A stretch of 64,000 bases of DNA, from the NCBI GenBank assembly GCA_963662795.1, contig OY759746.1:1536001-1600000 (forward strand), given 5' to 3'. Position numbers and translations under genes: made by a program. The stretch comes from Spirochaetia bacterium. GTDB taxonomy: Bacteria; Spirochaetota; Spirochaetia; CADAEX01. Of the stretch, positions 1-15,268 are shown in pieces; position 1 is the stretch's first letter; each line of letters begins with the position of its first letter. Under the pieces are notes generated by a model that saw nothing but the letters and a program-made list of their open reading frames with translations, was not told the origin of the DNA and searched no databases.

Positions 1-90
1 CCCCGGGTGGGGCGGCATAGCCTCTGCCTGGAAAGCTGTAAATATTATAAATGCAATAAAAAGCACATATTTTCTTAAATCCTTAAACAT
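1..90 (-). CDS. 5' end (partial) of a secreted protein, probably M6-family (immune inhibitor A-like) metalloprotease
   Basis: ATG at 90 with GAGGA RBS; translates MFKDLRKYVLFIAFIIFTAFQAEAMPPHPG, a signal peptide followed by the AMPPHP start typical of M6 propeptides; runs off the window. Confidence 0.6.
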   Translation of the reverse strand, partial: MFKDLRKYVLFIAFIIFTAFQAEAMPPHPG

Positions 91-166
91 TATCCTCTAA
101 TCCTTACTCTGCAATGAACCTGCCCTTTAAAAAACGGAGAGCAGGTAAAGCAATATTTCCTTTCTC

Positions 167-394
167 TTAATATTTACGTTCTTTCTCTTCAGGAGTCAAC
201 CAATTATTTGCCGTGTACTTCCTAATCCTGTTGTAATAAATTTCAATATCCCAATAAAGATCCTTAATCAATTCATCCATACTTCAATATTTTCGGTAAT
301 AAACCAAGGGAGTTTTTACTGTATGAAAGAATGACTCTGCTGCTACATTATACCACAGGTAAGCTTCGCTCTCCCAATAGTTTCCTTTCCTGCT
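167..394 (-). pseudogene. IS3 transposase OrfB C-terminal remnant
   Basis: SRKGNYW..WYNVAAESFFHTVKTPLVYYRKY*SMDELIKDLYWDIEIYYNRIRKYTANNWLTPEEKE matches the IS3 SRKGNCWDNA.ESFF..LK.E...IE.FYN..R.HS..YL.P consensus; in-frame TGA at 284-286. Confidence 0.85.
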
Positions 395-397
395 TAT

Positions 398-454
398 ACC
401 TTATTCTATTAAAAATCATCTTAACTACTACTTCGGGAAATCAAGGCATGATCA
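398..454. repeat. ~57-bp direct repeat copy A (IS3 left end)
   Basis: accttattctattaaaaatcatcttaactactacttcgggaaatcaaggcatgatca, similar to 2781-2838. Confidence 0.9.
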
Positions 455-1814
455 TTTTCTTAAGTTCGGGTTTTCTGAATACATTCTTTGATTCCCGACC
501 CACAACAACAAAAGACAGGACTCCGATGGTTATGAAGCTGATCAGGATGGCGGTGAACACCCCGTTGACACCCAAAAATCGGGACAACAGATATGCCAGG
601 GGGACTGCAACAACAGCAATCTGCACCAGAGAAAGGGCCCCGGCCAGAAAAGGTTTGTGGAAAGTGTTCAGAACTGCCGCTCCAATCTGGCCGCAGCCAT
701 ACATTCCGTATCCGATAGGGACGATCATCAGGTAGGCTTCCGCTGTGTTCCGTATCAGACGCTCCCCGTTGAAGATGCCGGCAAGTGAGCCTCCGGTGAA
801 GAAGAGGAGGACCGCCGACAAAATCCCTATGATATGGGCATAAAGACGCATCAAGCGGATTCCCTGCTTTGCTCTGTCTATGTTTCCTGCACCCAGGTTT
901 TGTCCTACAAAGACTGTGGCGGTGACTGCCAGTGCGTTGAATACGGCAAGCACAATCCCTTCTATTTTAGCCGCTACACCGAAACCTGCAACTGTTTCGT
1001 GTCCGTAACCGGCAAGGATCGAGGTGAATATGGCCGTTCCCAGGGGCAAGATCGCTTTTATAGCCGAATTCGGCAGACCGATATGCAACAGGGCTTTCCA
1101 TTTGTTCCATACGCTGGAAACTCTCAGGCCGCGAATGGTTATCAGTTTTTCCCGGAATACCTGAATGAGAATGGAAACGGTTGCCGCAATGGCTCGTGAG
1201 AATATAGTGGCCAATGCTGCTCCCGCGACACCCATCTTCGGGAAGGGACCGATGCCGAAGATAAGAAGAGGATCAAATATTGCGTTTACTACAGCTACTG
1301 TCAGCATGACAAAGGCTGGGGTAAAGGTGTCACCGAGCCCCCGGAGGATAGAATCGCCCAGCATTGGAATGACCATGAAGGCTGACCCCAGGTACCATAT
1401 TCTCATATATGTGATGATGACGGGCATCAGTTCGTCTCCGGCTCCGAGCAGGCGGAAGATCGGTTCGATGGTGAAGAATCCGATCATGCCTACGACAATA
1501 GACATGGAAATGCCCAGGGCCAGGGAGGATGTGGCCAGCAGTCGTTCCTCTTCAAGATTATGATTTCCTACGGCACGGGAAAACAGAGCCATGGAGGCTG
1601 TTCCAATACCGAAGACGATACTGCCGATGACCATGATCACGGGGAATGTGAATGATATGGCCGCCAGTTCAAGCGCGCCCAGGCGTCCCACAAAAAACGT
1701 GTCTACTACGTTAAATATCATCATCCCGAGCATCCCGACAATCGAGGGAAGGGTAATGCGGATCAGGGTAGTGGGCAGGGGCCCATTAAGTATAGCTTGT
1801 CTTTTCTCTTTCAT
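441..1814 (-). CDS. MATE family efflux transporter
   Basis: 457 aa, about 12 TM; FNVVDTFFVGRLG, RGLGDT, MGVAGAALAT and GQNLGAG motifs; stop codon lies inside the IS left end. Confidence 0.95.
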   Translation of the reverse strand: MKEKRQAILNGPLPTTLIRITLPSIVGMLGMMIFNVVDTFFVGRLGALELAAISFTFPVIMVIGSIVFGIGTASMALFSRAVGNHNLEEERLLATSSLALGISMSIVVGMIGFFTIEPIFRLLGAGDELMPVIITYMRIWYLGSAFMVIPMLGDSILRGLGDTFTPAFVMLTVAVVNAIFDPLLIFGIGPFPKMGVAGAALATIFSRAIAATVSILIQVFREKLITIRGLRVSSVWNKWKALLHIGLPNSAIKAILPLGTAIFTSILAGYGHETVAGFGVAAKIEGIVLAVFNALAVTATVFVGQNLGAGNIDRAKQGIRLMRLYAHIIGILSAVLLFFTGGSLAGIFNGERLIRNTAEAYLMIVPIGYGMYGCGQIGAAVLNTFHKPFLAGALSLVQIAVVAVPLAYLLSRFLGVNGVFTAILISFITIGVLSFVVVGRESKNVFRKPELKKMIMP

Positions 1815-2248
1815 TTCAATTCTACCATGTTGCTGTGAACGGTTGATGAGAAAGAGTCCAGCATCTTTATGAATTGTTCCAGTTCTTTCTCCGAAAGCTC
1901 ATCGGACAGGAGTCGGTCAAGGCGGTTAAGAATCTTCACGACCTCGGGGAAAATAGCCCGGCCCAGGTCGGTAAGATAGACTCCATTGATCCGGTTGTCC
2001 TGCCGGTTCGTCCTCCGTTCTGCGTAATTTGTCTTTACAAGGTGATTGACCGCTTTGGTGGTTCTTGTTTTATCGGTAACAACCTTTTCCATAAGTTCTT
2101 TCTGGGAAATTCCCTCGTTATGAGCCACGGTCAGATAGAAGGGCAGGGTCCGTTGACCCAGTCCGAAAGATTCGAGATGATGGTTAATATATCGTTCCTG
2201 CCATCGGGCAGCCCGGGCCAGGGAATGGCCTAGTTTTTGAATGTCCAT
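1811..2248 (-). CDS. MarR family transcriptional regulator
   Basis: GISQKEL..KTRTTKAVNHL..DNRINGVYLTDLG wHTH; likely start MDIQKLG at 2248; 4-bp overlap with MATE. Confidence 0.92.
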   Translation of the reverse strand: MDIQKLGHSLARAARWQERYINHHLESFGLGQRTLPFYLTVAHNEGISQKELMEKVVTDKTRTTKAVNHLVKTNYAERRTNRQDNRINGVYLTDLGRAIFPEVVKILNRLDRLLSDELSEKELEQFIKMLDSFSSTVHSNMVELK

Positions 2249-2251
2249 GGC

Positions 2252-2288
2252 AAGTGTGTAACACTTAATAGTTGCCGATGTCAACCAT
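2252..2288 (-). promoter_or_regulatory. marR-MATE promoter with two palindromic operators
   Basis: AAGTGT-gta-ACACTT (2252-2266) and ATaGTTGcC-gat-GtCAACcAT (2268-2288), the second overlapping a TTGACA -35 on the minus strand. Confidence 0.6.
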
Positions 2289-2589
2289 TAAGAGCTTGAA
2301 TCTATTCATATTGAAACTGCATATGAGAGTAATCAGCCAAACTTTACTGAGTAAACACTGTTTTAAAAAAATACAATGGTGATGGTTTTCCGGGTCTCAC
2401 TCAATCTGCAAGCTTGTAGTGAGAATCCAATATTCCCTGAGGGTCGTGCGTTAGTTTTTTATATCTTTAAGCACTTGAACGATAATAAGGATAATGCAAG
2501 TCAGATAAGATCTCCATTTTCCTGATTCTCATGATGCATTCAGGTTGGGTTAAGCAAAAGAAGTGAGGAGTCCTTTAATACCATAAATC

Positions 2590-2779
2590 CGCTCTCGGAT
2601 AATTTGAGATTATCTCCCATTATCAGAAAGCTGACGCTTCCAATTGCCAATTAAGCCATTAGCAATTCCTGAAGATTGCTCAACGCTGTGGGGTGTCCTG
2701 TCTGGATATTCTGATAGAGCTATGGTATTCCTTTTAAACCCTGCGTCATAACGGCATCTTTTTTTTCATTCATAGTCAT
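2590..2779 (-). pseudogene. IS3 transposase OrfA N-terminal remnant (frameshifted)
   Basis: MNEKK/RCRYDAGFKRNTIALSEYPDRTPHSVEQSSGIANGLIGNWKRQL resembles HTH_Tnp_1; starts right after the IRL; frameshift in an A8 run. Confidence 0.75.
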
Positions 2780-2780
2780 T

Positions 2781-2838
2781 ACCTTATTTTATTAAAAATC
2801 GGTCTTAACTACTCCTCCGGGAAATCAAGGCAGGAACA
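2781..2838. repeat. ~57-bp direct repeat copy B (IS3 left end)
   Basis: accttattttattaaaaatcggtcttaactactcctccgggaaatcaaggcaggaaca. Confidence 0.9.
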
Positions 2839-3346
2839 CAATATCGAGAGACGCAACCTCTATTCTGTAGCCTGCGTCAAAAGGTGCCCTTCCTTTGGCT
2901 GCCGGCTCATCCGATGGTATCCGCGAAAGACTTTTTATGTAGCCCAGTTTTTCATCATAAACTGCTTTAAGAACCATGGGAGATGGCTTATCCGATTCAA
3001 GGCTCCCTTTCATTTTCTCAAACATGCTTTTTACTGTAAGAGACTGAATAAAACTCTCTGAAAGAGAGGCCCTGTCCGTATTACCGGTTTTCCAGTCTGT
3101 TACAATATCATCCGCAACTGTAATATTTATTTCTTCAGGCACAAACGTCCCGCGTATATAGATAATATCAGCCTTATAAGATGTAATCTTCAGCCTGTCC
3201 CACTTTTTTTCTGACTTTTCGAGCATTTTCAGCTCACTTTTTTTATCTGTCAGAGTGTTTTCCCTCTTTTCAGACCTTCCCGAAGCGTAAAGGGTTGAGT
3301 ATGCAAGAACAGCAAAAATTATCAATAAAAGAGCTTTTTTGGACAA
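2825..3346 (-). CDS. Secreted protein, DUF6174-like
   Basis: TTG start at 3346 after GGGAG RBS; signal peptide; KKW...ITSY..., TVKSMFE and YDEKLGY pattern; last codons supplied by the IS end. Confidence 0.65.
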   Translation of the reverse strand: MSKKALLLIIFAVLAYSTLYASGRSEKRENTLTDKKSELKMLEKSEKKWDRLKITSYKADIIYIRGTFVPEEINITVADDIVTDWKTGNTDRASLSESFIQSLTVKSMFEKMKGSLESDKPSPMVLKAVYDEKLGYIKSLSRIPSDEPAAKGRAPFDAGYRIEVASLDIVFLP

Positions 3347-3482
3347 CTGTTTATCTCCCGCAAATATACACTTATTATAAGGCAATTATATTTTTTATGC
3401 GTAAAAGTTACAAATAAAGTGTATATACATCAAGGATTTAAAGTCTTAAAATAGGAGTGAAAGCAGATAAGGGAAAAAAATA

Positions 3483-4382
3483 ATGGATGTGATAAAACTA
3501 AAATCATTTATCGCTGTCGCAAAACTCAGGAATTTCAGAAAAGCATCTGAAGAGCTGTTTTTCTCCCAGCCTGCAATCAGCGCCCAGATAAAAGAACTTG
3601 AAAACTATTACAACGTGATTTTATTTGAACGGACAGGAAAAAAGGTTGAACTTACCGAGGCAGGAGAACTTCTGCTTCCTTACGCCGTTGACCTTGTGAG
3701 TAAATTTGAAGAGTCGAGGTACAGTGTCCAGAATGCTGCCAGTGCAGACAGGGGACGGATCAAGATCGGCACAAGCATTCTTCCCGGACTTTATTATCTG
3801 CCTGACCTTATTGCAGAATTCAAGGAAAAGAATCCTGATATTGTTTTTGATATATCACTTTTATATTCTGCAGAAATTGAAAAACTTGTCTATGACATGA
3901 ATATTCACCTGGGTGTTATCGGTACTCCGGAAGATTTCACATTTCAGGAGCACCTGTCCTATGAAAGTGTTTTCAGGGACCGTCTTGTAGGCTGTGTATA
4001 TTCCGGACATCCGTTTTTTGAACGGGAATTTGTTTCTCTTTCGGAATTTGCCGATGAAGAGCTTATTCTTCCCACAAAAAACACCTTTACCCGGAAAATA
4101 GTTGAAAAAAGCATGAAGGAGAAAGGGATCCCGTTCAAGACAGCTTATGAAATAGCGAATAACGAAATGATAAAGCGAATGGTTGAGAAGAAACTGGGAA
4201 TAACTATTATGTGCTCTTCAATGATACAGAGTGATCACCCTGTTCTCAAGCCTGTTATTATAGATGATCTTCACTCGTACAGGCACATAAACATTGTTTT
4301 CCGGAAAGACAGAAAACTGTCCCCGCCTCTCCGGAATTTTATAGAATTTTTAACTTCACATCCCAAGAAAAACGTTATTTAG
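3483..4382 (+). CDS. LysR family transcriptional regulator
   Basis: NFRKASEELFFSQPAISAQIKELE HTH plus LFERTGKKVELTEAG; 299 aa. Confidence 0.97.
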   Translation: MDVIKLKSFIAVAKLRNFRKASEELFFSQPAISAQIKELENYYNVILFERTGKKVELTEAGELLLPYAVDLVSKFEESRYSVQNAASADRGRIKIGTSILPGLYYLPDLIAEFKEKNPDIVFDISLLYSAEIEKLVYDMNIHLGVIGTPEDFTFQEHLSYESVFRDRLVGCVYSGHPFFEREFVSLSEFADEELILPTKNTFTRKIVEKSMKEKGIPFKTAYEIANNEMIKRMVEKKLGITIMCSSMIQSDHPVLKPVIIDDLHSYRHINIVFRKDRKLSPPLRNFIEFLTSHPKKNVI

Positions 4383-4390
4383 AATTTTTT
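4258..4390. repeat. ~133-bp direct repeat copy 1 (lysR 3' end)
   Basis: Nearly identical to 4913-5044, differing by a few substitutions and a 1-bp indel. Confidence 0.97.
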
Positions 4391-4454
4391 ACAAGAAAAT
4401 TTAACAAGACAGGCTTTAAATATAAAATCAACCTCATTCAATGATTCAAAACAA

Positions 4455-4556
4455 TTACGCAGTTCTGTCTCCAATTCCCAGTAAAAGGCCTGAGACACTG
4501 ATATCTTCGTCTGTCCAGACTTTTGATGCAAATACTTCTTTAATTAAAGTATTCAT
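4455..4556 (-). pseudogene. DUF2442-family protein, internally deleted
   Basis: MNTLIKEVFASKVWT-DEDISVSGLLLGIGDRTA*: N- and C-terminal family motifs joined with the middle missing. Confidence 0.7.
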
Positions 4557-4781
4557 GCCACTTTCTCCTTATTAACTCCTGATTTTCTTCTATCATTCTT
4601 TCTATTGTATTAAGTTCTTTTGAAGTCATACCATAATTTGAAGCAATAATTACTTCGGAGTCTAACCAATATTTTGCAACTTTTGTATGTTTTCTGACAT
4701 GAATATGACATTTCTCCAGAGGTTCTCCCTCATTAGAGTAAAAAAAGAATTTATAACGTCTATTTCAAGAATCTTCGGCAT
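4540..4781 (-). pseudogene. DUF4160-family protein (predicted TA component), frameshifted
   Basis: Restoring one base near 4757 gives MPKILEIDGYKFFFYSNEGEPLEKCHIHVRKHTKVAKYWLDSEVIIASNYGMTSKELNTIERMIEENQELIRRKWHEYFN. Confidence 0.82.
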
Positions 4782-4912
4782 TCACGTTCCTGAATTAATT
4801 ATACTATTAATAGATTTTTGTTGCATCACTTTATTCTGATGATCTTGCTTTTGAAAAAAGTATTTTTTAAATTTTCTCCGGCAGTAAGATACGTCTCTCA
4901 TTGGCCGGGTTT

Positions 4913-5044
4913 TTATAGATGATCTTCACTCGTACAGGCATATAAACAGGTTTTCCGGAAAGACAGAAAACTGTCCCCGCCTCTCCGGAATTTTATGGAA
5001 TTTTTAACTTCACATCCCAGGAAAAACGTTATTTAGAATTTTTT
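4913..5044. repeat. ~132-bp direct repeat copy 2 (degenerate lysR 3' end plus Prune stop)
   Basis: Copy of 4258-4390 with a 1-bp deletion. Confidence 0.97.
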
Positions 5045-6117
5045 GCAAAGTATTCCTGTACAACCGGCTGAAGCTTTTTCCTTGACCATCCGATATTTCC
5101 CTGAAGATAAAATCCGGCTCTTCTGTCTACAGGCACTTTGATCTGAGCCGGGGCAAGTTCCCCTCCATTATCCTGAAGGTATGCGTATACGCTTTCAAGC
5201 AGTACAGCATCTTTTGAAAATAGAATCAGCTCTCTTGTAAATTCAGGCTCTGTGTAGGCAATCATTATAAAGAGTATATCAAGGGAGTTTTTTGTATAAT
5301 ATTTATCAGCTGCTTCAAGCAGCTGAGGGTCTTTTTTCAGCCAGTTTTCCATTGAAATGAGGGCAGAGCTGAAACCTGTTTTTTTACTGCCCATTACCCA
5401 TTCCTTGTAGTCTTTTCTTAGAATATCGTAGCTTGAAAGAGGGGCAGTATTAAACTTTTCAAACTGAAGCCTGTCGAAAACCTTGTTCCGGTCAATCTTG
5501 AATGCTGTAGTGATGTAGTCAATAACTTTTATGTCTTTCTCTGTTGTTCTTCCTGCTTCCTTTGAAAAGTTTACTGTATCAAGCAGTATAGGTCCGGCAA
5601 GCAACAGCGCCTCTTCCCTGTTTTCCAGTGCTCCTGCTTTGTCCCTGATTTTTTCCGCCACCAGAGTCGCGCATGATCCCACAGGCTCAATAGTTTTGTT
5701 TTTAACAGGATATGCGTTTTCATCCTTGTGATGGTCAAGGATCTCCTCAATACATCCGGAAAGATATTCCTGTCCGCCGGAAAGTTTATTGTGATCAATT
5801 AATGTGATTTTAAGTCTTCCTGATTTAAAAATTTCTTCAATATTAATTTCATCAATGAAGAGAAGGTTTGTTGTTTCAATTCCTGCTTCCGCAAAAAGAT
5901 ATACAGCTTCTGTCCTTAATTTAAAATCTGCCGCCGGTATGTTTATCAGCGGAATAAAAAGCTCATCATCACTTTTACTTGTTTTTTCCAGAAAGCTTGC
6001 ATAAACTATTGATGATGCCATGGAGTCAAGGTCTGAAGCTTCATTTCCCATGACTACATGAATGATCTTTTTATTGTTTAGATTGAATTTTGAATCAAAA
6101 AGATAGTTATTTAACAT
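5029..6117 (-). CDS. DHH/DHHA2 phosphoesterase, Prune/Ppx1-type exopolyphosphatase
   Basis: GNEASDLDS, IDHN, LDHH, VGSCATLV, ILLDT, ILRKDYK and SRKKLQP motifs; start MLNNY at 6117 after GGAGG. Confidence 0.85.
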   Translation of the reverse strand: MLNNYLFDSKFNLNNKKIIHVVMGNEASDLDSMASSIVYASFLEKTSKSDDELFIPLINIPAADFKLRTEAVYLFAEAGIETTNLLFIDEINIEEIFKSGRLKITLIDHNKLSGGQEYLSGCIEEILDHHKDENAYPVKNKTIEPVGSCATLVAEKIRDKAGALENREEALLLAGPILLDTVNFSKEAGRTTEKDIKVIDYITTAFKIDRNKVFDRLQFEKFNTAPLSSYDILRKDYKEWVMGSKKTGFSSALISMENWLKKDPQLLEAADKYYTKNSLDILFIMIAYTEPEFTRELILFSKDAVLLESVYAYLQDNGGELAPAQIKVPVDRRAGFYLQGNIGWSRKKLQPVVQEYFAKNSK

Positions 6118-6191
6118 AATATTCCTCCATAATAACCTGTATTCAGAATAGAACATTGTCAGTATTCGTCAATAAGATATTGATGATCTTG

Positions 6192-6210
6192 TGATAGAAG
6201 TTTTCTATCA
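6192..6210. promoter_or_regulatory. LysR-type recognition box in the divergent promoter
   Basis: Perfect TGATAGAA-gtt-TTCTATCA containing T-N11-A; a half-site repeat TGATAGA follows; TATAAT at 6255. Confidence 0.65.
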
Positions 6211-6288
6211 GGCTGATAGATTTTTTTCATTGGAAAAATTATACGCCGGGCAGGTATAATGTCGTATAATCGATGGAGGAGATCAGAA

Positions 6289-6930
6289 ATGCCAGACGTG
6301 TTTGAGAAAAACAAGGCAACTTCAGCAGAAGAAGCTGCGAAAATAATTCCAAGGGCTGAGTTCAGAGTATTCGGTCAGGGTATAATTGATATTGTAAAAA
6401 GTAAAATGTGGAATGGAAAGACAATTCTTTTTCAGGCGAGAAAAATGCCGCTTGAGACATATTTTCTTTCAGGACTTACCAACGAGGCAAATGTCAAGGT
6501 TAGAGACGGTCTTCTTGATATAAAAGTAAAAGTCGGTGAGACTCCGGAAGGTTATGAGATTTTCCAGCCAAGCGGAAAATTCCAGTTCCCCGTAAAAAAA
6601 GCAGATCTTGCAACTATTGTTTCCCATCTGAAAGCTGACATGAAACTTGACAAAGAGACTTACACAATTGATGAATTTATCGAAATGGCGAGGAAACATC
6701 CTGACCTTGCGCCTGTCACTGTTGAGAAAATGCGCTACGGTTTTACAATTGACGGTATTATCTGCGAATATGCCCAGGTCTGGTTTAACGGCGCACTGAT
6801 AGAAACCGCATGCGCTGAGAGTGAGAATTACGCTGGCATGAAAGTTGTAGTAGAAGGGCTGGGCATTTCTGAAATGCCGAATACAAGTTATTTAAGAGCT
6901 GCAAAACGTGTTATTGGAATGGCAAAATAG
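6289..6930 (+). CDS. CYTH/triphosphate-tunnel-like hypothetical protein
   Basis: PRAEFR, ETYF, NVKVR..LDIK, VEKMRY, ETACAESE and TSY follow the order of CYTH motifs; GGAGG RBS before 6289. Confidence 0.6.
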   Translation: MPDVFEKNKATSAEEAAKIIPRAEFRVFGQGIIDIVKSKMWNGKTILFQARKMPLETYFLSGLTNEANVKVRDGLLDIKVKVGETPEGYEIFQPSGKFQFPVKKADLATIVSHLKADMKLDKETYTIDEFIEMARKHPDLAPVTVEKMRYGFTIDGIICEYAQVWFNGALIETACAESENYAGMKVVVEGLGISEMPNTSYLRAAKRVIGMAK

Positions 6931-6980
6931 TATTATAATTAAGTAATACTGGAAATATAAAATATTTTTGGAGGAAAATA

Positions 6981-7961
6981 ATGAAAAAATTGTATATTGT
7001 ACTGTTGATATTATTGGTATCAGCAACAATGGTTTTCGCTGGCGGCGGACAGGAAGCAAAAAAAGCTGATACTGCAAAGGCAGCTGCGCCGGCATTTCCT
7101 GAAAAACCGATAAAACTTGTTGTTTATCTTGCGCCGGGCGGAGCCGGAGATATTCTTGCGAGAAAATTCACCGATGTTGCATCAAAGTATACAGATGCGA
7201 CTTTTGTTGTTGAGAACAAACCAGGCGCAGGCGGAATCGTAGCTCTTGAATATATCAGAAGCCTTCCTGCGGACGGTTATAACCTGATGTATGTAACAAA
7301 ATCAATTGTATCCAAAGTAGCGACAACTGAAACAGATATTGATATTACAAAAGAATATGACTGGATAGCGATGCTCCAGGTCGACCCTGAATGTGTAATT
7401 ACCAATGTAAAAAACAAGGCAAATACATGGGAACAGATTTTCGAAGACTCTAAAGCTAAAAACGGAAACCAGCTCTGGCTCGGACCGGCTGCAGGCGGAC
7501 TTGACCATGTAACAGCACAGAAAATATGGGCTTCTGCAGGAATGCAGGCAAAATGGGTTCCTTTTGACAGCGGCGCAAAAGCGATTGCAGCTCTTCTCGG
7601 ACAGCAGGGAGTTGTTTATGTTGGAAACCCGGCAGAAGTTAAGGGAAAACCCGATCTTAAGGTTGCCGCGGTATGCTATTCGGAGAGGCTTCCCGAATTC
7701 AAGGATGTGCCGACATTCAAGGAACTCGGTATTAACGGAGTTGAAAATGAGGTTATGTGGAGAGGTTTTGCCGTAAAAGCCGGAACACCTGATCCTGTAG
7801 TTGCGTGGTATGAAGATCTTTTCGCAAAGGTATCCAACGATGCTGAATGGAAAAAAACATACGAGTCAGACGGTATAGCTGTTGTTAACTGGAAGAAAGA
7901 CAAATTCAACAAGCTTGTTGCTGATGACCTGGCTGAAGGAAAAGCAGCCGCAGCAAAATAA
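6981..7961 (+). CDS. tctC: Tripartite tricarboxylate transporter substrate-binding protein
   Basis: FPEKPIKLVV..APGGAGDILAR, VVENKPGAGG and DVPTFKELG; signal peptide. Confidence 0.93.
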   Translation: MKKLYIVLLILLVSATMVFAGGGQEAKKADTAKAAAPAFPEKPIKLVVYLAPGGAGDILARKFTDVASKYTDATFVVENKPGAGGIVALEYIRSLPADGYNLMYVTKSIVSKVATTETDIDITKEYDWIAMLQVDPECVITNVKNKANTWEQIFEDSKAKNGNQLWLGPAAGGLDHVTAQKIWASAGMQAKWVPFDSGAKAIAALLGQQGVVYVGNPAEVKGKPDLKVAAVCYSERLPEFKDVPTFKELGINGVENEVMWRGFAVKAGTPDPVVAWYEDLFAKVSNDAEWKKTYESDGIAVVNWKKDKFNKLVADDLAEGKAAAAK

Positions 7962-8000
7962 TATTTCAGTTGATAAAGTAACTAAATAATTCTATCAAAC

Positions 8001-8031
8001 AGAGGAGGAGGGCATATTGTCTTCTTCCTCT
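8001..8031 (+). terminator. Intercistronic stem-loop after tctC
   Basis: agaggaggagggca-tat-tgtcttcttcctct hairpin. Confidence 0.55.
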
Positions 8032-8059
8032 TTAAAATTACAATTCTTGCAGGCAAAAA

Positions 8060-8623
8060 ATGGAAACTTTTAAATATTTCGGAAAAGGGACAGGTCTTTA
8101 CATGATGGTATCGGTTTTAATCCTGCTGTTTGCTGTCATCGCATTTGTCATTTCAAGATCATCAAAAAAGGAATACTTCTGGAGACTTATTATTCCTGTT
8201 TTTTTAATTGAAGCATCTCTCGGCTTCCTCATGGTATCACTGGGCCTCCCTGTGAAAGGGGATGAGGTAGGCCCTTCGGTAGTTCCCAACCTCTGGATTA
8301 CCGGTATAATATTATTAAGTATTTTAATCATTATCAGGACACTGTTTGGTTTAGAAGATAAAGACCCCAAATGGGGAAGAATTGGAATAGCGGGAATTTT
8401 TCTTGCGTTTACCATCTTTTACCTATACATGATAATTTATATCGGTTATTACATTGCTACATTTCTCTACTTATCAATCAGTATTTACTCACTTTCATAC
8501 AGAAACCTCAAAGTTATTGCCGGTCTTACATTCGGCTGGATTCTGGTTTCATATTTTGGCTTTTACCGGCTTCTCTATGTTCCTCTTCCCAAGGGAATGC
8601 TGATAGAACGGATATTCGGATAA
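8060..8623 (+). CDS. tctB: TTT small permease
   Basis: Hydrophobic; VGPSVVP, GYYIAT and C-terminal LYVPLPKG. Confidence 0.88.
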   Translation: METFKYFGKGTGLYMMVSVLILLFAVIAFVISRSSKKEYFWRLIIPVFLIEASLGFLMVSLGLPVKGDEVGPSVVPNLWITGIILLSILIIIRTLFGLEDKDPKWGRIGIAGIFLAFTIFYLYMIIYIGYYIATFLYLSISIYSLSYRNLKVIAGLTFGWILVSYFGFYRLLYVPLPKGMLIERIFG

Positions 8624-8636
8624 GGAGTACACTTTT

Positions 8637-10139
8637 ATGGATTTATTAATTAATCTCTACAATGGTTTCGGATATCTTGCAGGATGGGAACCTGTTGTGG
8701 CCATGATCGTCGGCGTTATTCTGGGAATTCTTGTAGGCGCCATGCCGGGGCTTTCCCCTTCAATGGGTGTTGCCCTTCTTGTTCCCTTTACCTACAAAAT
8801 GGCGCCCCAGATTGCGCTGATCCTGCTTGTTTCAATATATATTGCATCGAATTACGGCGGTTCAATTACAGCTGTTACAATAAATACCCCCGGTACGCCA
8901 TCTGCAGTTGTTACGGCATTTGACGGATATCCTCTTACGCTTCAGGGAAAAGCAGGCGTCGGGCTTGGAGTTTCTCTTGTTGCTTCAACAATCGGCGGAA
9001 TTATAGGAACAATCATTCTGATTTTCTTTTCCGTTCCGCTTGCCTCCCTTGCGGTAAAGCTTCATCCTGCTGAGTATTTCGCTCTTGCAATATTCGGGCT
9101 TACAACTGTCGCCTCCCTTGGCGGTAAAAACTGGCCCAAGGCATTTATCGCTGCTTTACTGGGGCTTCTGATAAATACAATCGGACTTGATCCCATATCA
9201 GGCGTAAAAAGGTTTACTTTCGGCACATACCGGCTTTTTGACGGGTTTGCCCTTATTCCCGCCCTTATCGGACTTTTTGCGTTAAGTGAAGTTTTTATGA
9301 GGCTTGAAGAGTTCAAGCTGGATAAGGAAAAGATGGACACAGATATTAAAAAAACTGTGTGGCCGTCAATTCTTGATTACTGGAAGCTGAAGTATACAAT
9401 CCTTAAAACTTCAATAATAGGTACGCTGATTGGAATCTTCCCCGGAGCTGGCGCTACAATTGCTACCTTTATCGCATACGATTTTACAAAGAGGGGGAGC
9501 AAGGATCCTGACAGTTTTGGAAAAGGCAATCCCGAAGGTGTTGCTGCAGCTGAGGCGTCAAATTCGAGCTCAGTCGGCGGCGCGCTTGTTCCTCTCCTTG
9601 CGCTTGGTATTCCAGGAAGCGCTACAACCGCGGTCCTTGTCGGCGCGCTTATGATTCACGACCTTAATCCCGGCCCTCTCCTTTTTACGGAACGGCCTGA
9701 CATTGTATATTCCCTTTTCGCCTCCTGTCTTGTCGCAAACGGCATTATGCTTGTTCTCGGTCTTATGGGTTCGAGACTCTGGATAAAGGTTACAGACATC
9801 CCGAAGAAAGTTCTTTTCCCAAGTATACTTGCTATTTCCATAATCGGAAGCTTTGCGGTCAATTACTCATTCTTTGATGTATCTGTATGCATAGCATTCG
9901 GAGTTGCAGGATGGCTGCTTAAAAAATATGATTATCCGGTCGCGCCGATAGTTCTGGGTATGGTACTTGGAAATCTTGCTGAAACAAATTTCAGAAGAGC
10001 GGTAATTATGGGAGGATATCCCGTATTCTTTGTAAGACCTGTCAGCGTTATACTCCTGCTTGTCTCTGCCTTATCACTGGCATATCCTTTTTATCAGAGC
10101 TACAGAAATAAGAAAAAATCTACAGCTGCCGGCAAATAA
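8637..10139 (+). CDS. tctA: TTT large permease
   Basis: GAMPGL, YGGSITAVTINTPGTPSA, FPGAGAT and GVAAAEASNSS motifs. Confidence 0.97.
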   Translation: MDLLINLYNGFGYLAGWEPVVAMIVGVILGILVGAMPGLSPSMGVALLVPFTYKMAPQIALILLVSIYIASNYGGSITAVTINTPGTPSAVVTAFDGYPLTLQGKAGVGLGVSLVASTIGGIIGTIILIFFSVPLASLAVKLHPAEYFALAIFGLTTVASLGGKNWPKAFIAALLGLLINTIGLDPISGVKRFTFGTYRLFDGFALIPALIGLFALSEVFMRLEEFKLDKEKMDTDIKKTVWPSILDYWKLKYTILKTSIIGTLIGIFPGAGATIATFIAYDFTKRGSKDPDSFGKGNPEGVAAAEASNSSSVGGALVPLLALGIPGSATTAVLVGALMIHDLNPGPLLFTERPDIVYSLFASCLVANGIMLVLGLMGSRLWIKVTDIPKKVLFPSILAISIIGSFAVNYSFFDVSVCIAFGVAGWLLKKYDYPVAPIVLGMVLGNLAETNFRRAVIMGGYPVFFVRPVSVILLLVSALSLAYPFYQSYRNKKKSTAAGK

Positions 10140-10167
10140 TCGGTTATAGTATTTAAACAATTTTCCA

Positions 10168-10201
10168 TGCCGTCCTGCAGTCACTGCGGGGCGGTTTTTT
10201 T
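10168..10201 (+). terminator. Rho-independent terminator
   Basis: gccgtcctgcag-tca-ctgcggggcggt followed by a T tract. Confidence 0.8.
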
Positions 10202-10246
10202 ATTTTTATGGAACTCTCCATGTGCAGGGTCTATAATAATTTTATT

Positions 10247-10906
10247 ATGAAAATCAGTATGAAAAAAGTTATTATACCGCTTTGTACGGCAGGTTTAGTT
10301 CTGTCAGCTTATTCCGCATGGCAGCTGTTTTCTTCTTCCGGTTTTGTATTCAGGCTTGTCATAAGATCCGGGTTTTTCGCATTGAAAATATGCGCGGGTC
10401 TTATAAAACTGCTTTTTATTAAATCACTACCCGTAATCTGGTTCCCTGTTCTTGCATATTTTGTTCTCTCCTGGTTTGTAAGGGACAGTCTGAAAAAGAA
10501 AATATTTCTTTTCGTGATTGTTTCTGTAGAGGCCGCTATACTTGTAAATATTATTCTCCCTTCGCTGACCTCTGTAATGTTTGCCCTTACCCGCTTCCCT
10601 TTTGTCTTCTGCATGACCCTTCAGTTTTACATGTTTCTTCTTTTTCTGCTTCCCAATGAACTCTGGAATTTCCTGGGAGGACTTGTCCTTTTCCTGAAAG
10701 GCTCAGCCGTTATCCTTCTTCCTGATTTTCCGACCTTTATTGATGACATCGGAATACTTTTTGCCATCTTCTTTTTTCTGTTTTTGTATATAAATACTCT
10801 CTCAGCACTTGTGAAAAGAATTGGAAACAGGGAATCCATGGAGACGGCGGAAAAAGTTTTTAAAAACCTGATTTTACGGTTAAGCAAAAAAAATGAAACA
10901 ACCTGA
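10247..10906 (+). CDS. Hypothetical membrane protein
   Basis: Multi-TM ORF with PDFPTFIDD motif; start uncertain (10208, 10247 or 10259). Confidence 0.6.
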   Translation: MKISMKKVIIPLCTAGLVLSAYSAWQLFSSSGFVFRLVIRSGFFALKICAGLIKLLFIKSLPVIWFPVLAYFVLSWFVRDSLKKKIFLFVIVSVEAAILVNIILPSLTSVMFALTRFPFVFCMTLQFYMFLLFLLPNELWNFLGGLVLFLKGSAVILLPDFPTFIDDIGILFAIFFFLFLYINTLSALVKRIGNRESMETAEKVFKNLILRLSKKNETT

Positions 10907-10969
10907 TTGGCTGTATACTGTTTAAAATGATACAGGATAGGACTTATAAGATTTAATAATTATCTTAAT

Positions 10970-11749
10970 TCAGTTTGCTATAATCAGCTTAATATTAAGA
11001 TCCTCTATCGTTTCCCTGTATTCCTGCGATATCTTATTATCAGTTATAATTGTGTCAATATTTGAAAGATCTCCAAAATGCGAAGGACTTACCATTCCGA
11101 ATTTGCTCGAATCTGCCACAACAATGACCTGCTTGCTGGACCGCATTAAAATATTTTTTATTGTTACGTGAAAGTTATGGTAGCAGGTCAATCCCAGTTT
11201 TTTTTCAATACCTGCAGCCGAAATAAAAACTTTATCTGTTCGTATTTTACTTAGAAATGAAATTCCCTCTTCCGAATAGAAAACATCTGAATCACGGTCA
11301 AGATAACCGCCTGGGAGGATTATATTGGCATTTTTCTTGTTATAAAGTTCGCATGCGCATTCAAAGGTAACACAAATGGCGCTAATTCTTTTATCCCCGG
11401 GAATATATTTTGCAATTAATGGTACTGTTGTGCCAATATCAAATCCTATCGTTTCATTTTCATTAATCATGGAAGCTGCGCAATAGCCGATGGCGCTTTT
11501 TAAATTTACATTTTTAGACATTTCATTACCGATCAGGTATTTATTGCTTTCAGTAATATTAAATGATGATATTGGTATAGCTCCGCCATGAATTCTCTTA
11601 ATCAGGCCATTATCTTCAAGATTATCCAGATATCTCCTTACAGTCATTTCGGACGTCAGAAGTTTGTCAGAGAGTGTTTTAACGCTAACTTCACCTTCTC
11701 TCTGGAGCATTTCAACAATCTGTTTCATACGTTTATCTTTTTTTGACAT
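10970..11749 (-). CDS. DeoR/GlpR family transcriptional regulator
   Basis: SEMTVRRYL, RIHGGA, FDIGTT and ADSSKFG; divergent from the sugar operon. Confidence 0.95.
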   Translation of the reverse strand: MSKKDKRMKQIVEMLQREGEVSVKTLSDKLLTSEMTVRRYLDNLEDNGLIKRIHGGAIPISSFNITESNKYLIGNEMSKNVNLKSAIGYCAASMINENETIGFDIGTTVPLIAKYIPGDKRISAICVTFECACELYNKKNANIILPGGYLDRDSDVFYSEEGISFLSKIRTDKVFISAAGIEKKLGLTCYHNFHVTIKNILMRSSKQVIVVADSSKFGMVSPSHFGDLSNIDTIITDNKISQEYRETIEDLNIKLIIAN

Positions 11750-12194
11750 TTAATCTCTCATTACTCAATTTTATTTATTATAAAGAGTAAAGTACCATTT
11801 TGCAATACAAATTGCATTAATTACAATTATTAGTGAGATAAATAACAATAAAACAATCATAAAAACAATAATAATCTGTTATAATCAGGAAAGTAATGAC
11901 AAAAAACATACTTTACCAATGCTGTATTGATAAGGACAATTAGTTAAAAACACATAATAAAGTTTATATATGTCTGTAAGTAATCTAAAAAAACAATATA
12001 AAAGCTTTAATGTGAGTATTACCCTTTAAAAAACTATTAAAATGAATTGACATGAACAAATAAACAGTATAAAGTGTTTTTGGTGTTTGCAAAAAGAACA
12101 CAATGACATGATAATGTTCTTTTTATGATGTTTCAAGCTTGTTGAATGGTTTGTGCTGCTGAAAAATAATGAATACAAGTAATTAGAGGTTAAA

Positions 12195-13682
12195 ATGAGA
12201 GAAATTACATGCGATAAAGAAAAAAATCGATATAGAATGTATATAAATGGTAACTGGCGTGAAAATCGTGATAATAAAGTCATTGAAGTAATCAATCCTT
12301 CAAATCTTGAAGTTATAGGAATAGTTGAGGAATCTGACGATGCTGATGTAAATGAAGCAGTTGAGAGTGCGGATGCTGCCTTTAAAAAATGGTCAAGAAC
12401 TTCACCCGAGGCAAGATCTGAATTGTTATTTAAGGCCTCCGGAATTATCAGGGATCGCGCGGATATACTAGCCTACCTTATGACACTGGAACAGGGAAAG
12501 CCTCTTGCTGAAGCAAGGGGAGAGGTTCTCAAGGGAGCTGAAATCCTTCATTTTTACGGGGAAGAAGCAAAACGTATCCATGGAGAAGTTATTCCCGGGT
12601 TTGATCCGGCAACAACCAGTTTTACAGTATATGAACCGGTTGGGGCCGCGGCTGCGATTTCTCCATGGAATTATCCAATTGAGCTGATTGCGTGGAAAAT
12701 CGGCGCGGCATTAGGCAGCGGTTGTACAATAGTTATAAAACCGCCCTCGGAGACTCCGCTGTCTCCCGCGGGATTTGTTGAATGTATTGCAGATGCCGGT
12801 GCACTGCCTGGAATAATTAATCTTATTTTTGGCCGGGGCAGCCGGATTGGCCCAAAGCTTATTAATAACCCGAAAATCAGAAAGGTCGCATTTACAGGTT
12901 CTACCAGGGCCGGAATTGAAGTCGCATCTTTATGCGGAAATGTCATGAAAAAGGTTTCTCTTGAGCTTGGAGGTCAGTGTCCGCTTATCGTGACAAAGAA
13001 TGCCAATCTTGATGAAGCGGCTAAAGCGGCGGCCAGGAGGAGTTTTAGAAATAATGGACAGATATGTATTGCGATAAACAGAATTTATGTTGAGAGGCCG
13101 GTTTATGACCAGTTTATTGAAAAATTTGTTAAATTGACCTCAAAACTTGTTATTGGCGACGGTATTCAAAATCCAAAGGCAGATATGGGCCCTATGGCTA
13201 CAATTGCAGGACTTAATAAAACAAAAGAACATATAAATGACGCATTATCAAAAGGAGCGAAACTTTGCTGGGGCGGGAAAAAACCCGAAGGCAAAGAATT
13301 TGAAAAAGGATTTTTCTATATGCCTACAATTCTGGCTGACGCAAACCATAATATGAGAATAATGCAGGAAGAAACATTCGGCCCCGCGGTAGGGGTCATG
13401 CCTTACGATAGCACAGATGAAGCAGTAAATCTGGCTAATGGAACAAATTATGGACTTGCTGCCTATGTGTTTACTGATAATATCAATGAGGCTGATAAAT
13501 TTGCCAGAGAACTTGAAATGGGGAATGTGGCTATAAATAATCCGGATGCCGGTGTTATAAACGCTCCATACGGCGGATTCAAGGCAAGCGGCACAGGGTA
13601 TGAACATGCCAAAGCCGGTATGATGGAATACCTTCATACAAAACATATACGGATAAAATATTCCATGCGCGGAAATAATTAG
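12195..13682 (+). CDS. NAD(P)-dependent aldehyde dehydrogenase (SSADH-like)
   Basis: SPWNYP, FTGST, LELGG, GQICIA and EETFGP. Confidence 0.93.
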   Translation: MREITCDKEKNRYRMYINGNWRENRDNKVIEVINPSNLEVIGIVEESDDADVNEAVESADAAFKKWSRTSPEARSELLFKASGIIRDRADILAYLMTLEQGKPLAEARGEVLKGAEILHFYGEEAKRIHGEVIPGFDPATTSFTVYEPVGAAAAISPWNYPIELIAWKIGAALGSGCTIVIKPPSETPLSPAGFVECIADAGALPGIINLIFGRGSRIGPKLINNPKIRKVAFTGSTRAGIEVASLCGNVMKKVSLELGGQCPLIVTKNANLDEAAKAAARRSFRNNGQICIAINRIYVERPVYDQFIEKFVKLTSKLVIGDGIQNPKADMGPMATIAGLNKTKEHINDALSKGAKLCWGGKKPEGKEFEKGFFYMPTILADANHNMRIMQEETFGPAVGVMPYDSTDEAVNLANGTNYGLAAYVFTDNINEADKFARELEMGNVAINNPDAGVINAPYGGFKASGTGYEHAKAGMMEYLHTKHIRIKYSMRGNN

Positions 13683-13696
13683 AAAAGGAGTTGTCT

Positions 13697-15244
13697 ATGG
13701 CTGAAAATCCTCTGCTTTTAGGAATTGATATTGGAACAAGCGGGTGCAAAACAATATTAATTGATGCTTCAGGAAATGTTATTGAAAAGGCTATAGAAAA
13801 TTATCCGCTTTATATCGAAAGACACGGTTGGTCTGAGCAGGACCCGGAAGACTGGTGGAAGGCAGTATTGCTGTCAATGAAAAAAGTTCTCGGAGCTTCC
13901 TCTGATTATGCAAAAAGAGTTAAGGGGATAGGTCTTACCGGCCAGATGCATGGTCTTGTTATACTAGGTAAAAAGGGAAATATACTCAGGCGAAGTATTT
14001 TGTGGAATGATCAAAGAACTGCCGAACAGTGCGAAGAAGTTTACAAAAAGGTTGGTGGATTGGATAATCTTCTTCAAATAACGAATAATCCAATGCTGCC
14101 GGGTTATACCGGGGGCAAAATTCTCTGGATCAAAAAATATGAACAGGAAATATATAATCAAATATCCGGTTTTTTAAATCCGAAGGATTATATCAGATTC
14201 AAGCTTACCGGAGTCCTGGCCACCGATGTTTCTGATGCTTCGGGTACAGGGCTTTTCAATGTAGGAAAAAGGAAATGGGCAACAGAACTTTTTTCTGCGC
14301 TTGATATTCCTTTTCAGTTTGCTCCCGAGGTTTTTGAATCTATGGAAATAACAGGGTACGCGAGTAAAAACATCTGTTCTGAATTTGGTATTCCTTTTGA
14401 TACTCCGGTAACCGCCGGCGGCGGGGATGCCGTAATTCAGACATTGGGTTCAGGCGTTATATCTGATAAGGATCTTATGACAACTATAGGAACTGCGGGA
14501 ATAATTTCAACAGCACTTGAAAAATGCCAGAATAATCCCGGAGGGAGACTTCAGATATTCTGTAATGTAATTCCTGATACCTGGCATTTAATGGGTGTTA
14601 CACTATCGGCAGGTTCTTCATTACGCTGGTTCCGTGACAGATTCTGTCAGCCTGAAAAATTTGTGGCAGAAATACTTGGAAAAGATGATTATGAAATATT
14701 GACTGAAGAGGCCTCCAATGCAGCAGCCGGATCCGGCGGATTAATTTTTCTTCCTTATCTCGGGGGAGAGCGCTGTCCGTATACGGATCCGAACCTCAAG
14801 GCTGCATTTACAGGAATAAGTTATAATACAACCAGGGCAGAGTTAATAAGAAGTGTAATGGAGGGTGTTATCTTCAGTTTGTGGGATGTTCACTCGCTTA
14901 TTAAGAAAATGGATATGGAGTTTGATCAAATAAGCACATCCGGCGGAGGATCACAATCTAAATTATGGAGACAGATACACGCGGATGTTTTTCAGAAAAA
15001 AGTGATTACAGTTAATGGAAGCCGTGAAGGGGCAGCCTATGGCGCAGCAATGGTAGCCGCAGTTGGAACAGGTGTCTGGAATTCCTTTAAACAGGGTGTT
15101 GATATGATGAAAATTGAAAATGAAGCAAAACCTGATAAAAAAATGAAAAACTTGTATCAGCACCTTTTCGGAATTTATAACAGTTTGTATGGCAGACTAA
15201 AACCAGAGTTTGATAGTTTGGCTGAATTTGAAAAATTATACTAA
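13697..15244 (+). CDS. xylB: Xylulokinase (FGGY kinase)
   Basis: GIDIGTSGCK, GQMHG, LWNDQR, DVSDASGT and PYLGGERCP. Confidence 0.85.
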   Translation: MAENPLLLGIDIGTSGCKTILIDASGNVIEKAIENYPLYIERHGWSEQDPEDWWKAVLLSMKKVLGASSDYAKRVKGIGLTGQMHGLVILGKKGNILRRSILWNDQRTAEQCEEVYKKVGGLDNLLQITNNPMLPGYTGGKILWIKKYEQEIYNQISGFLNPKDYIRFKLTGVLATDVSDASGTGLFNVGKRKWATELFSALDIPFQFAPEVFESMEITGYASKNICSEFGIPFDTPVTAGGGDAVIQTLGSGVISDKDLMTTIGTAGIISTALEKCQNNPGGRLQIFCNVIPDTWHLMGVTLSAGSSLRWFRDRFCQPEKFVAEILGKDDYEILTEEASNAAAGSGGLIFLPYLGGERCPYTDPNLKAAFTGISYNTTRAELIRSVMEGVIFSLWDVHSLIKKMDMEFDQISTSGGGSQSKLWRQIHADVFQKKVITVNGSREGAAYGAAMVAAVGTGVWNSFKQGVDMMKIENEAKPDKKMKNLYQHLFGIYNSLYGRLKPEFDSLAEFEKLY

Positions 15245-15268
15245 ATATATTTATATCAGGAGGATGCT

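Follow-up and report, generated by a model that had tools for sequence, protein, structure and literature searches.

A predicted tunnel-fold protein linked to an exopolyphosphatase-like protein and a tripartite transporter in a spirochaete: a candidate module for import and hydrolysis of condensed phosphates

Overview of the locus and its proposed function

The window analyzed here is a stretch of 64,000 nucleotides from a Spirochaetia bacterium (GCA_963662795.1, contig OY759746.1, positions 1,536,001 to 1,600,000). At positions 3483-10201 of this window lies a locus in which a gene for a DHH/DHHA2 phosphoesterase and an operon for a 213-residue protein (hereafter X213) and the three subunits of a tripartite tricarboxylate transporter (TTT) diverge from one regulatory region, together with a gene for a LysR-type regulator. 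On the basis of current results, this locus is probably a LysR-controlled module for importing condensed inorganic phosphates and hydrolysing them, the candidate solutes being tripolyphosphate and short polyphosphate, and possibly pyrophosphate or trimetaphosphate. The evidence comes from the gene content and order, the predicted fold of X213, its conserved neighbourhoods and fusions, and a separate clade of the substrate-binding protein TctC. All computational checks that the original prediction had proposed gave results in its favour. Genes and domains are as the original prediction had described them (open reading frame and Pfam annotation), and the features of the locus are as follows:

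3483-4382, plus strand: lysR-type regulator gene, 299 amino acids (Pfam HTH_1, 1.9e-20; LysR_substrate, 1.1e-41)
4254-5048, no strand: 654-bp insertion where the 3' ends of lysR and the DHH gene converge (repeat search)
5029-6117, minus strand: DHH/DHHA2 phosphoesterase gene, PPX1/Prune-like, predicted cytoplasmic product of 362 amino acids from the ATG at 6117 (Pfam DHH, 2.8e-10; DHHA2, 1.4e-17)
6118-6288, no strand: divergent regulatory region, 171 bp (direct reading, palindrome scan, promoter scan)
6289-6930, plus strand: X213, 213 amino acids, predicted triphosphate-tunnel (CYTH-like) fold (AlphaFold2 model and Foldseek; no Pfam or NCBIfam match)
6981-7961, plus strand: tctC, exported substrate-binding protein of the TTT (Pfam TctC, 2.5e-27)
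8060-8623, plus strand: tctB, small membrane subunit (Pfam TctB, 5e-13)
8637-10139, plus strand: tctA, large membrane subunit (Pfam TctA, 3.9e-158)
10169-10195, plus strand: terminator-like hairpin at the operon end (12 pairs, 8 of them G-C, then a T-run)

In the mechanism that we propose, the LysR protein would sense the solute or a product of it and activate both divergent promoters, TctC would capture condensed phosphate outside the cell, and TctBA would carry it inward. In the cytoplasm, the PPX1-like DHH protein would remove terminal phosphates and X213 would cleave short, highly charged chains such as tripolyphosphate, and the products would be orthophosphate and pyrophosphate, the latter for the membrane H+-pyrophosphatase. 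Excerpts of PMC3440374 name CYTH proteins (NeuTTM and ygiF), the DHH protein Prune and family-I pyrophosphatase as hydrolysers of tripolyphosphate. All three families gather around X213 (see below), and tripolyphosphate or short polyphosphate is therefore the most economical common substrate. We rate the components as belonging to known kinds (a TTT importer, tunnel-fold and DHH hydrolases), and the proposed substrate class and the central protein family as new.

X213 is predicted to adopt a triphosphate tunnel fold

No Pfam or NCBIfam match was found for X213 at E≤0.01. An AlphaFold2 model built from an 80-member alignment was of high confidence (predicted local distance difference test score (pLDDT) 95.7, predicted template modelling score (pTM) 0.90) and contained nine strands and a C-terminal helix (residues 201-208). 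When this model was compared with the PDB by Foldseek, 42 matches were obtained at E≤1e-3, and those listed up to E 2.4e-4 were all CYTH/triphosphate tunnel metalloenzyme (TTM) proteins. The listed matches included thiamine triphosphatase (ThTPase), AtTTM3, ygiF, SaTTM, CyaB/class IV cyclases and Cet1, and the only non-TTM proteins among them were the structurally related Mediator subunits Med18/20 (ranks 30, 33 and 41). The TTM fold is described in passages of PMC8233210 as a tunnel formed by a beta-barrel of eight strands, with a C-terminal plug helix, and both elements could be recognized in the predicted structure of X213. Thus, the claim that the gene at 6289 encodes a CYTH-fold protein was supported by structure prediction (a beta-barrel with CYTH/TTM matches), whereas no match to CYTH could be detected at the sequence level.

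The conservation pattern is also in line with such a fold. Among the 80 family members, seven residues (E24, R26, Y58, K70, K79, K147 and R149) are invariant and nine (R22, E56, N68, R72, D77, E90, K97, E160 and E177) are nearly so; in strand 1, R22 is kept in 79 members and both E24 and R26 in all 80. The six acidic positions predicted to lie in the tunnel (E24, E56, D77, E90, E160 and E177) are each retained in at least 73 of the 80. The conserved charged residues alternate along the predicted strands (R22/E24/R26, E56/Y58, K70/R72, D77/K79, K147/R149, E160 and E177), as expected of a tunnel lining. According to excerpts of PMC8233210, the C-terminal ExE motif supplies, with its first Glu, the metal-1 ligand family-wide; the corresponding residue of X213, matched by strand order, appears to be E177 (78/80). 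X213 may be a metal-dependent hydrolase of short, highly charged phosphate chains that works beside an exopolyphosphatase, to which it is fused in some organisms.

X213 resembles the bacterial CYTH tripolyphosphatases (NeuTTM, ygiF and SaTTM; PF01928) in its predicted eight- or nine-stranded barrel with a C-terminal helix, in strands with alternating basic and acidic residues and, judged by strand order, apparently in the retained first Glu of ExE. On the other hand, it lacks a PF01928 match, has R-x-E-x-R rather than ExExK, is ∼60 residues longer and, by our count, has two more conserved basic residues than the alignment of co-located CYTH proteins. Canonical CYTH proteins share the locus with X213 in 40 of 80 cases and in one protein (P0271) the two are fused. 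Because no significant sequence or profile match was obtained and ExExK is replaced by R-x-E-x-R, we treat X213 as a new family within the predicted tunnel fold class and not as a member of PF01928. In a protein atlas, the 30 nearest clusters of X213 (30/30) were all unnamed and the nearest named one was CYTH (score 0.85), which we take as a lead only.

Two other functions were considered for X213. The motifs of cyclases and ThTPases given in passages of PMC8233210 are HF before strand 1 and W/YxRxR; X213 lacks the former and reads NxKxR at the position of the latter, and an adenylate cyclase was down-weighted on account of the absent HF motif. With regard to a VTC4-like polyphosphate polymerase, VTC proteins were not among the listed Foldseek matches. 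It should be noted that three runs of complex prediction for the DHH protein with X213 scored 0.00, 0.45 and 0.00, and were used as evidence neither way.

X213 is the conserved hub of phosphate-related neighbourhoods

A total of 1893 homologs of X213 were found at E≤1e-3, of which the best 120 listed are 79-99% identical to it and all named only 'hypothetical protein'. We confirmed 148 relatives in one-genome-per-species contigs and kept the best 80 loci, in which X213 is 73-98% identical. These loci come from at least six phyla; Spirochaetota, Acidobacteriota, Pseudomonadota, Desulfovibrio, Gemmatimonadota and Chloroflexota are represented, and the loci include Holophagaceae, Thermoanaerobaculia, Burkholderiales, Rhodocyclales, Gammaproteobacteria and Krumholzibacteriia, with some cultured isolates. 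Compared with each neighbour in turn, X213 shows the higher conservation in 74-100% of locus pairs; the median identities are 77-86% for X213, as against 33% for LysR, 50% for DHH, 53% for DASS, 56% for TctC, 72% for TctA and 73% for CYTH. A wider family of ∼200-residue relatives (25-45% identity) comprises 734 cluster representatives at E≤1e-3. The family is nevertheless rare, with profile matches in 8 of 401 sampled genomes of Spirochaetota, 7 of 401 of Pseudomonadota, 18 of 301 of Acidobacteriota and 3 of 301 of Desulfobacterota.

Pfam and NCBIfam served to annotate the conserved neighbour clusters of these loci, many small clusters remaining unannotated; clustering of open reading frames was weighted by GC content at third codon positions (GC3), gene calls were crude in high-GC loci, and the neighbours classed as 'other' include antisense artefacts. 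The most frequent families were DASS carriers (44 loci), canonical CYTH with ExExK (40), LysR (36, within flanks), DHH (28), phosphate-selective porin O/P (22), the DUF4010 membrane protein (20), exported family-I pyrophosphatase (17), TctC (16), PiT (12), PhoU_div (11), SulP-STAS-cNMP (cyclic nucleotide monophosphate-binding; 11) and a Na/Pi cotransporter with PhoU (5), as well as two exported proteins without Pfam matches (13 each). When canonical CYTH, DHH, exported pyrophosphatase and an exported second tunnel-fold protein were counted as hydrolase-type genes and TTT, DASS, SulP, PiT and Na/Pi as anion carriers, a hydrolase-type gene was present in 69 of the 80 loci, a carrier also in 69 and both in 64. 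For the 49 loci flanked by 5 kb or more on each side, these numbers were 46, 48 and 45, respectively. Of the 77 loci in which no contig edge intervenes, 63 have a gene for DUF4010, TctC, SulP, DASS, PhoU_div or PiT directly after X213. Neither citrate lyase nor another carboxylate-catabolic family was found among the annotated neighbour clusters; the homologs cluster with phosphatases and phosphate transporters, as the original prediction required. The conserved hub is X213 and not the TTT; in other phyla, the carrier beside it is a DASS, SulP, PiT or DUF4010 membrane protein.

Distant relatives and fusions provided further information. In all four full-length divergent spirochaete relatives (∼31-33% identical to the X213 of the window), the next gene encodes a short Ppx/GppA protein. 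It is followed by tctC and tctB in three of the four; tctA is also present in two of these, and the third contig ends first. The TTT is retained while DHH is swapped for the unrelated Ppx/GppA, and its link with X213 thus outlives replacement of the exopolyphosphatase. Among eight longer homologs, six consist of an X213-like domain and Ppx/GppA (497-522 amino acids) and one of CYTH and X213 (P0271), and of six long cluster representatives scanned, four carry Ppx/GppA and one a SulP C-terminus. The proteins with an X213-like domain N-terminal to a short Ppx/GppA recall Ppx/GppA operons and the ygiF-type CYTH-CHAD proteins, which likewise join a tunnel enzyme to a polyphosphate-handling module; they differ in that the partner domain is of a new family, and the window has DHH instead of Ppx/GppA. 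Five of six proteobacterial loci with divergent relatives have the X213-like gene beside a canonical CYTH gene, and one proteobacterial locus with a divergent relative also holds DASS, porin O/P, PhoU_div and PiT.

More tentatively, X213 might mark a widespread pathway by which bacteria of many phyla import intact environmental condensed phosphate (pyrophosphate, tripolyphosphate or short polyphosphate), by TTT in spirochaetes and by DASS, SulP or PiT elsewhere, and might itself be a new class of tunnel enzyme or a sensor; we regard this extension as possible but well short of probable. X213 would then be either a hydrolase of short chains, cyclic phosphates or pyrophosphate that completes the work of PPX-type enzymes, or a sensor that couples transport to hydrolysis. 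On this wider view, the TTT would be the first of its family, and the carriers the first of any kind in an inner membrane, to transport condensed inorganic phosphate.

A purely regulatory role deserves separate mention. By analogy with PhoU and PhoU_div, X213 could act as a sensor or as a regulatory subunit: it would recognize a phosphate-rich signal (tripolyphosphate, polyphosphate or a nucleotide polyphosphate) by binding and tune the carrier or the exopolyphosphatase, with the carriers, including the TTT, moving orthophosphate. The position of X213 just before a carrier or carrier-associated gene of whatever family (63/77 loci), its fusions (with a SulP C-terminus in a single representative, with Ppx/GppA in other proteins) and the loss of ExExK would all fit such a role, and so would its whole-length conservation of 73-98% across phyla, which exceeds that of all neighbours and is typical of multi-surface interactors; ygiF likewise bears a polyphosphate-binding CHAD domain (excerpts of PMC6537752). 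However, binding alone would explain the retention of six acidic tunnel positions less well than metal-dependent catalysis, a single conserved protein would hardly dock on five unrelated carrier families, and orthophosphate uptake in the host is already served by PstS and PiT. We therefore consider the sensor role rather unlikely.

The carriers also raise the question of another shared oxyanion (sulfate, selenate, arsenate or tungstate), in which case an activation reaction such as that of ATP sulfurylase would be what the pyrophosphatases support. The DASS (Na_sulph_symp), SulP and PiT families include sulfate carriers, the only NCBIfam match of the PiT neighbour is the CysP sulfate permease model (68.9 bits against a cut-off of 400), and the best NCBIfam match of the LysR protein is a selenium-associated model, below cut-off. 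No sulfate-activation, selenium or arsenic genes were present among the annotated conserved neighbours, however, and Ppx/GppA, PPX1-like DHH, CYTH, Porin_O_P, PhoU_div and Na/Pi-PhoU are phosphate-specific families, which makes this explanation highly improbable.

Several variants of the neighbourhood were observed. Signal peptides were found on the family-I pyrophosphatases (∼255 amino acids; for example, L011:12948-13721) and on the DHH proteins of Desulfovibrio, Holophagaceae and Rhodocyclaceae loci (for example, a family-II-like DHH protein of 343 amino acids, L075:4213-5244, and its relatives); spirochaete DHH proteins do not have them. These peptides suggest periplasmic hydrolysis of pyrophosphate by the putatively exported enzymes. 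One of the exported proteins without a Pfam match (∼310 amino acids with a signal peptide; 18 members in 13 loci; seen in Desulfovibrio and Burkholderiales loci) is predicted to have a tunnel fold (pLDDT 90), with CYTH/TTM proteins as top Foldseek matches, and would represent a second unannotated tunnel-fold family, located outside the cytoplasm. Two of its coordinates are as follows:

L075:9379-10311, plus strand: exported protein, predicted tunnel-fold family
L075:5361-6281, minus strand: exported protein, predicted tunnel-fold family

In Desulfovibrio, the exported tunnel-fold gene is followed by genes for a secreted protein without a Pfam match (∼280 amino acids) and an exported family-I pyrophosphatase. 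In Holophagaceae, two DUF4010 genes flank X213 (L005:5448-6911 and the gene after X213), and a second set, ∼5 kb upstream, consists of porin O/P, an X213 paralog (24-33% identical), canonical CYTH and DASS. The SulP protein encoded just downstream of X213 in Burkholderiales and Gemmatimonadota (L011:7665-9905) has C-terminal STAS and cyclic-nucleotide-binding domains. In one proteobacterial subgroup (L107:8504-12079, L109:6900-10200), the X213-like gene is accompanied by genes for a CBS protein, a guanylate-kinase-like protein, canonical CYTH and Metallophos; this context looks nucleotide-related and not transport-related.

The DHH protein and the phosphate metabolism of the host

The best full-length match of the DHH protein among PDB sequences was the yeast exopolyphosphatase PPX1 (2qb6; E 3.6e-20, residues 29-370), in agreement with the earlier assignment to the Prune/Ppx1 type. 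Both Pfam domains are present with their DxD and DHH motifs, and the GNExxDxDS and DHH motifs align with those of PPX1. The match to family-II pyrophosphatase (diphosphatase, 9m0m) was weaker (E 1.7e-11), the protein scored below all NCBIfam cut-offs for Mn-dependent pyrophosphatase, and no signal peptide was detected. It is thus nearer to PPX1 than to family-II pyrophosphatase and appears, from its sequence, to be a PPX1-like exopolyphosphatase. Human Prune belongs to the same type as yeast PPX1 and is the main mammalian tripolyphosphatase according to excerpts of PMC3440374. The protein of the window differs from both in that it is a bacterial, putative enzyme whose gene diverges from the operon of an importer, with a LysR gene as the candidate regulator.

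The host genome is a single contig of 3.93 Mb, estimated to be 98% complete, in which the DHH gene is the only gene with a DHHA2 domain. No match was found in this genome to PPK1, PPK2, Ppx/GppA, family-I pyrophosphatase or canonical CYTH; it has one membrane H+-pyrophosphatase, one PstS and one PiT, all outside the locus. The cytoplasmic exopolyphosphatase is therefore without a known endogenous source of polyphosphate, as neither PPK1 nor PPK2 was matched, and uptake of orthophosphate is already covered by PstS and PiT. Considering that the importer also appears to be co-regulated with the hydrolases, exogenous condensed phosphate fits these data best.

The TTT and the TctC clade

TctC, TctB and TctA are all above the Pfam cut-offs and are encoded on one strand in the canonical order, with gaps of 99 and 13 bp. 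TctC has a hydrophobic, signal-like segment at its N-terminus, and its PDB relatives are Bug/TctC proteins (E 1e-24). The TTT of the window thus has the same three subunits in the same order as the TctCBA citrate transporter, and its TctC is related to the Bug structures. However, in a tree of 27 spirochaete TctC proteins with a small outgroup, the 19 linked to X213 (16 from DHH-type loci and three from Ppx-type loci) formed one long-stemmed clade (support 100/99, stem length 1.21), separate from the other eight, namely seven other paralogs of this genome and the second TctC of locus L055. The clade has its own conserved residues, for example, K62, W128, W166, W183, N216, K266 and W276. Furthermore, the operon partners are phosphoanhydride hydrolases rather than carboxylate enzymes. 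This context argues for a phosphate ligand of TctC, a proposed ligand class without precedent for the TTT family in the literature searched.

A more conventional explanation is that the TTT imports a carboxylate, or a phosphorylated or metal-complexed one, and that X213 and the DHH protein act on an unrelated organic triphosphate or nucleotide (thiamine triphosphate, a nucleoside triphosphate or cyclase chemistry). The characterised TctC ligands in Table 1 of PMC10443332 are all carboxylates. In addition, the best Foldseek matches of X213 are thiamine triphosphatases, a proteobacterial subgroup of relatives has guanylate-kinase-like, CBS and Metallophos genes, and the SulP neighbours bear a cNMP-binding domain. 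Against these points, no carboxylate-catabolic gene was found within positions 1-16000 of the window, which bears out the original prediction, or among the annotated conserved neighbours, and the citrate or carboxylate explanation was down-weighted because no catabolic partner could be found. X213 also departs from the cyclases and ThTPases in both motifs described in passages of PMC8233210, the X213-linked TctC clade accompanies two unrelated exopolyphosphatase families, and phosphate porins, PiT/PhoU_div and Na/Pi carriers prevail among the neighbours. On balance, import of a carboxylate seems improbable.

Observations that weigh against the proposed function

Several observations count against import and hydrolysis of condensed phosphates by this locus. 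With respect to X213, the Foldseek probability was 1.0, yet the TM scores were only 0.4-0.5. Comparison by hhalign with 15 co-located canonical CYTH proteins gave no significant result (probability 0.3, E 0.2), and a profile search of PDB sequences with X213 gave only weak matches to archaeal CYTH proteins (E 0.13-0.35). The ExExK hallmark is absent, strand 1 reading R22-x-E24-x-R26, and the second Glu of ExE (E179) is present in only 41 of the 80 members, including the protein of the window. With respect to the DHH protein, it is the sole soluble pyrophosphatase-like gene product of this genome and could simply be the pyrophosphatase of the cell.

As for the transporter, the listed TctC ligands are carboxylates (see above), and the TctC of the window retains positions conserved family-wide (G53, G54, D57, R61 and others). 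The link to the TTT is confined to Spirochaetota; elsewhere the carriers are of the DASS, SulP and PiT families, for which orthophosphate, sulfate and dicarboxylates are among the known substrates. In the non-spirochaete loci, where several hydrolases have signal peptides, hydrolysis may be external and only orthophosphate imported. Finally, many of the 80 loci are related (∼25 are from Holophagaceae), and the neighbourhood counts are therefore not independent.

Relationship to known phosphate uptake systems

The phosphate- and pyrophosphate-selective porins OprO/OprP, together with Pst/Pit uptake, deliver orthophosphate. Proteins of this kind accompany X213 as well: Porin_O_P, PiT, PhoU_div and Na/Pi-PhoU occur in 22, 12, 11 and 5 of the 80 loci, respectively. 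To our knowledge, no inner-membrane carrier for intact condensed phosphate has been described. Wastewater sludge, sediments and lake water are rich in polyphosphate and pyrophosphate, and many genomes that carry X213 come, by their record titles, from such environments. No description of a TTT for condensed phosphate or of the X213 family was found in the literature searched, most subscription journals being outside its reach. Excerpts of PMC13318637 consider polyphosphate metabolism to be limited to intracellular cycling, and passages of PMC9303572 put bacterial use of external polyphosphate down to alkaline phosphatases and 5'-nucleotidase; in these sources, the use of exogenous condensed phosphate has thus been explained only by external phosphatases. 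If the proposed function is true, a module of importer plus hydrolases would add a route to the phosphorus cycle, and the ligand range of the TTT would extend past carboxylates. A protein family of at least 1893 members, now known only as 'hypothetical', would also gain a function. X213 is a tractable protein in this respect, being short (213 amino acids) and unusually conserved, with a confident model and clear candidate catalytic residues.

The divergent regulatory region

The original prediction had placed a divergent promoter with a LysR box between the DHH gene and X213. Within the 171-bp region, we identified, at 6192-6210, a perfect palindrome (8+8) that includes T-N11-A and thus matches a LysR-type box in sequence, a third half-site at 6214-6220 and, by a consensus promoter scan, a promoter-like TGGAAA-18-TATAAT at 6231-6260. 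In the palindrome scan, the window was set against the upstream regions of 17 orthologous loci. A box of the same type, ATAnAAGTTTTtTAT, then TTTTnATTGGA, recurs at the same position upstream of the X213 ortholog in other spirochaete loci, and the recurrence of this putative LysR-type box exceeds chance. The LysR proteins of these loci are only ∼36% identical to that of the window, and the box recurs at the same distance despite this divergence; the regulatory layout is therefore conserved. The regulator has the HTH_1 and LysR_substrate domains of its family and scores below all NCBIfam equivalog cut-offs. Together with the T-N11-A palindrome in the putative target promoter, these domains suggest that the LysR protein may control both divergent promoters.

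A further motif, TGTCAA(G/T), recurs ∼40-60 bp upstream of the LysR-type box; it was seen in loci L016, L021, L030, L047, L048, L052, L055, L065, L079 and L006 and at 6150-6160 of the window, and one such locus is gammaproteobacterial.

Gene boundaries, insertion and flanking genes

The longest open reading frame of the DHH gene reaches 6156 on the minus strand. The true start is likely to be at 6117, since a 94%-identical locus (L002) starts there and GGAGG lies upstream. X213 starts at 6289, seven bases past the ribosome-binding site GGAGGAG (6275-6281).

The lysR gene is in the same locus, as had been noted earlier, but it is not directly beside the DHH gene, from which it is separated by the 654-bp insertion. 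The insertion is flanked by a direct duplication of ∼140 bp (4254-4394 and 4909-5048) of the 3' junction of the two genes, both of which are intact. Two repeat families were detected in the duplication by the repeat search, D1 (99 nucleotides, 97%) and D2 (53 nucleotides, 85%), with a spacing of 654-655. Inside the insertion, only short, broken or degenerate open reading frames were seen on the minus strand, and from its sequence it looks like a decayed small gene or a mobile remnant. The 98%-identical locus L001 is also gapped between lysR and the DHH gene, and in L002 the two genes abut.

On one side, the locus is flanked by genes for MatE, MarR and DUF6174 proteins (Pfam annotation), and on the other by a membrane open reading frame and genes for DeoR, aldehyde dehydrogenase, FGGY kinase and RpiA. 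The membrane open reading frame (10208-10906), past the terminator, encodes a hydrophobic protein of 232 amino acids without a family match and is kept only in L001 (85%) and L002 (77%). Positions 10970-15976 carry the DeoR regulator gene on the minus strand and then the genes for aldehyde dehydrogenase, FGGY carbohydrate kinase and ribose-5-phosphate isomerase A, a separate sugar-catabolic unit that is unrelated to the X213-TTT locus.

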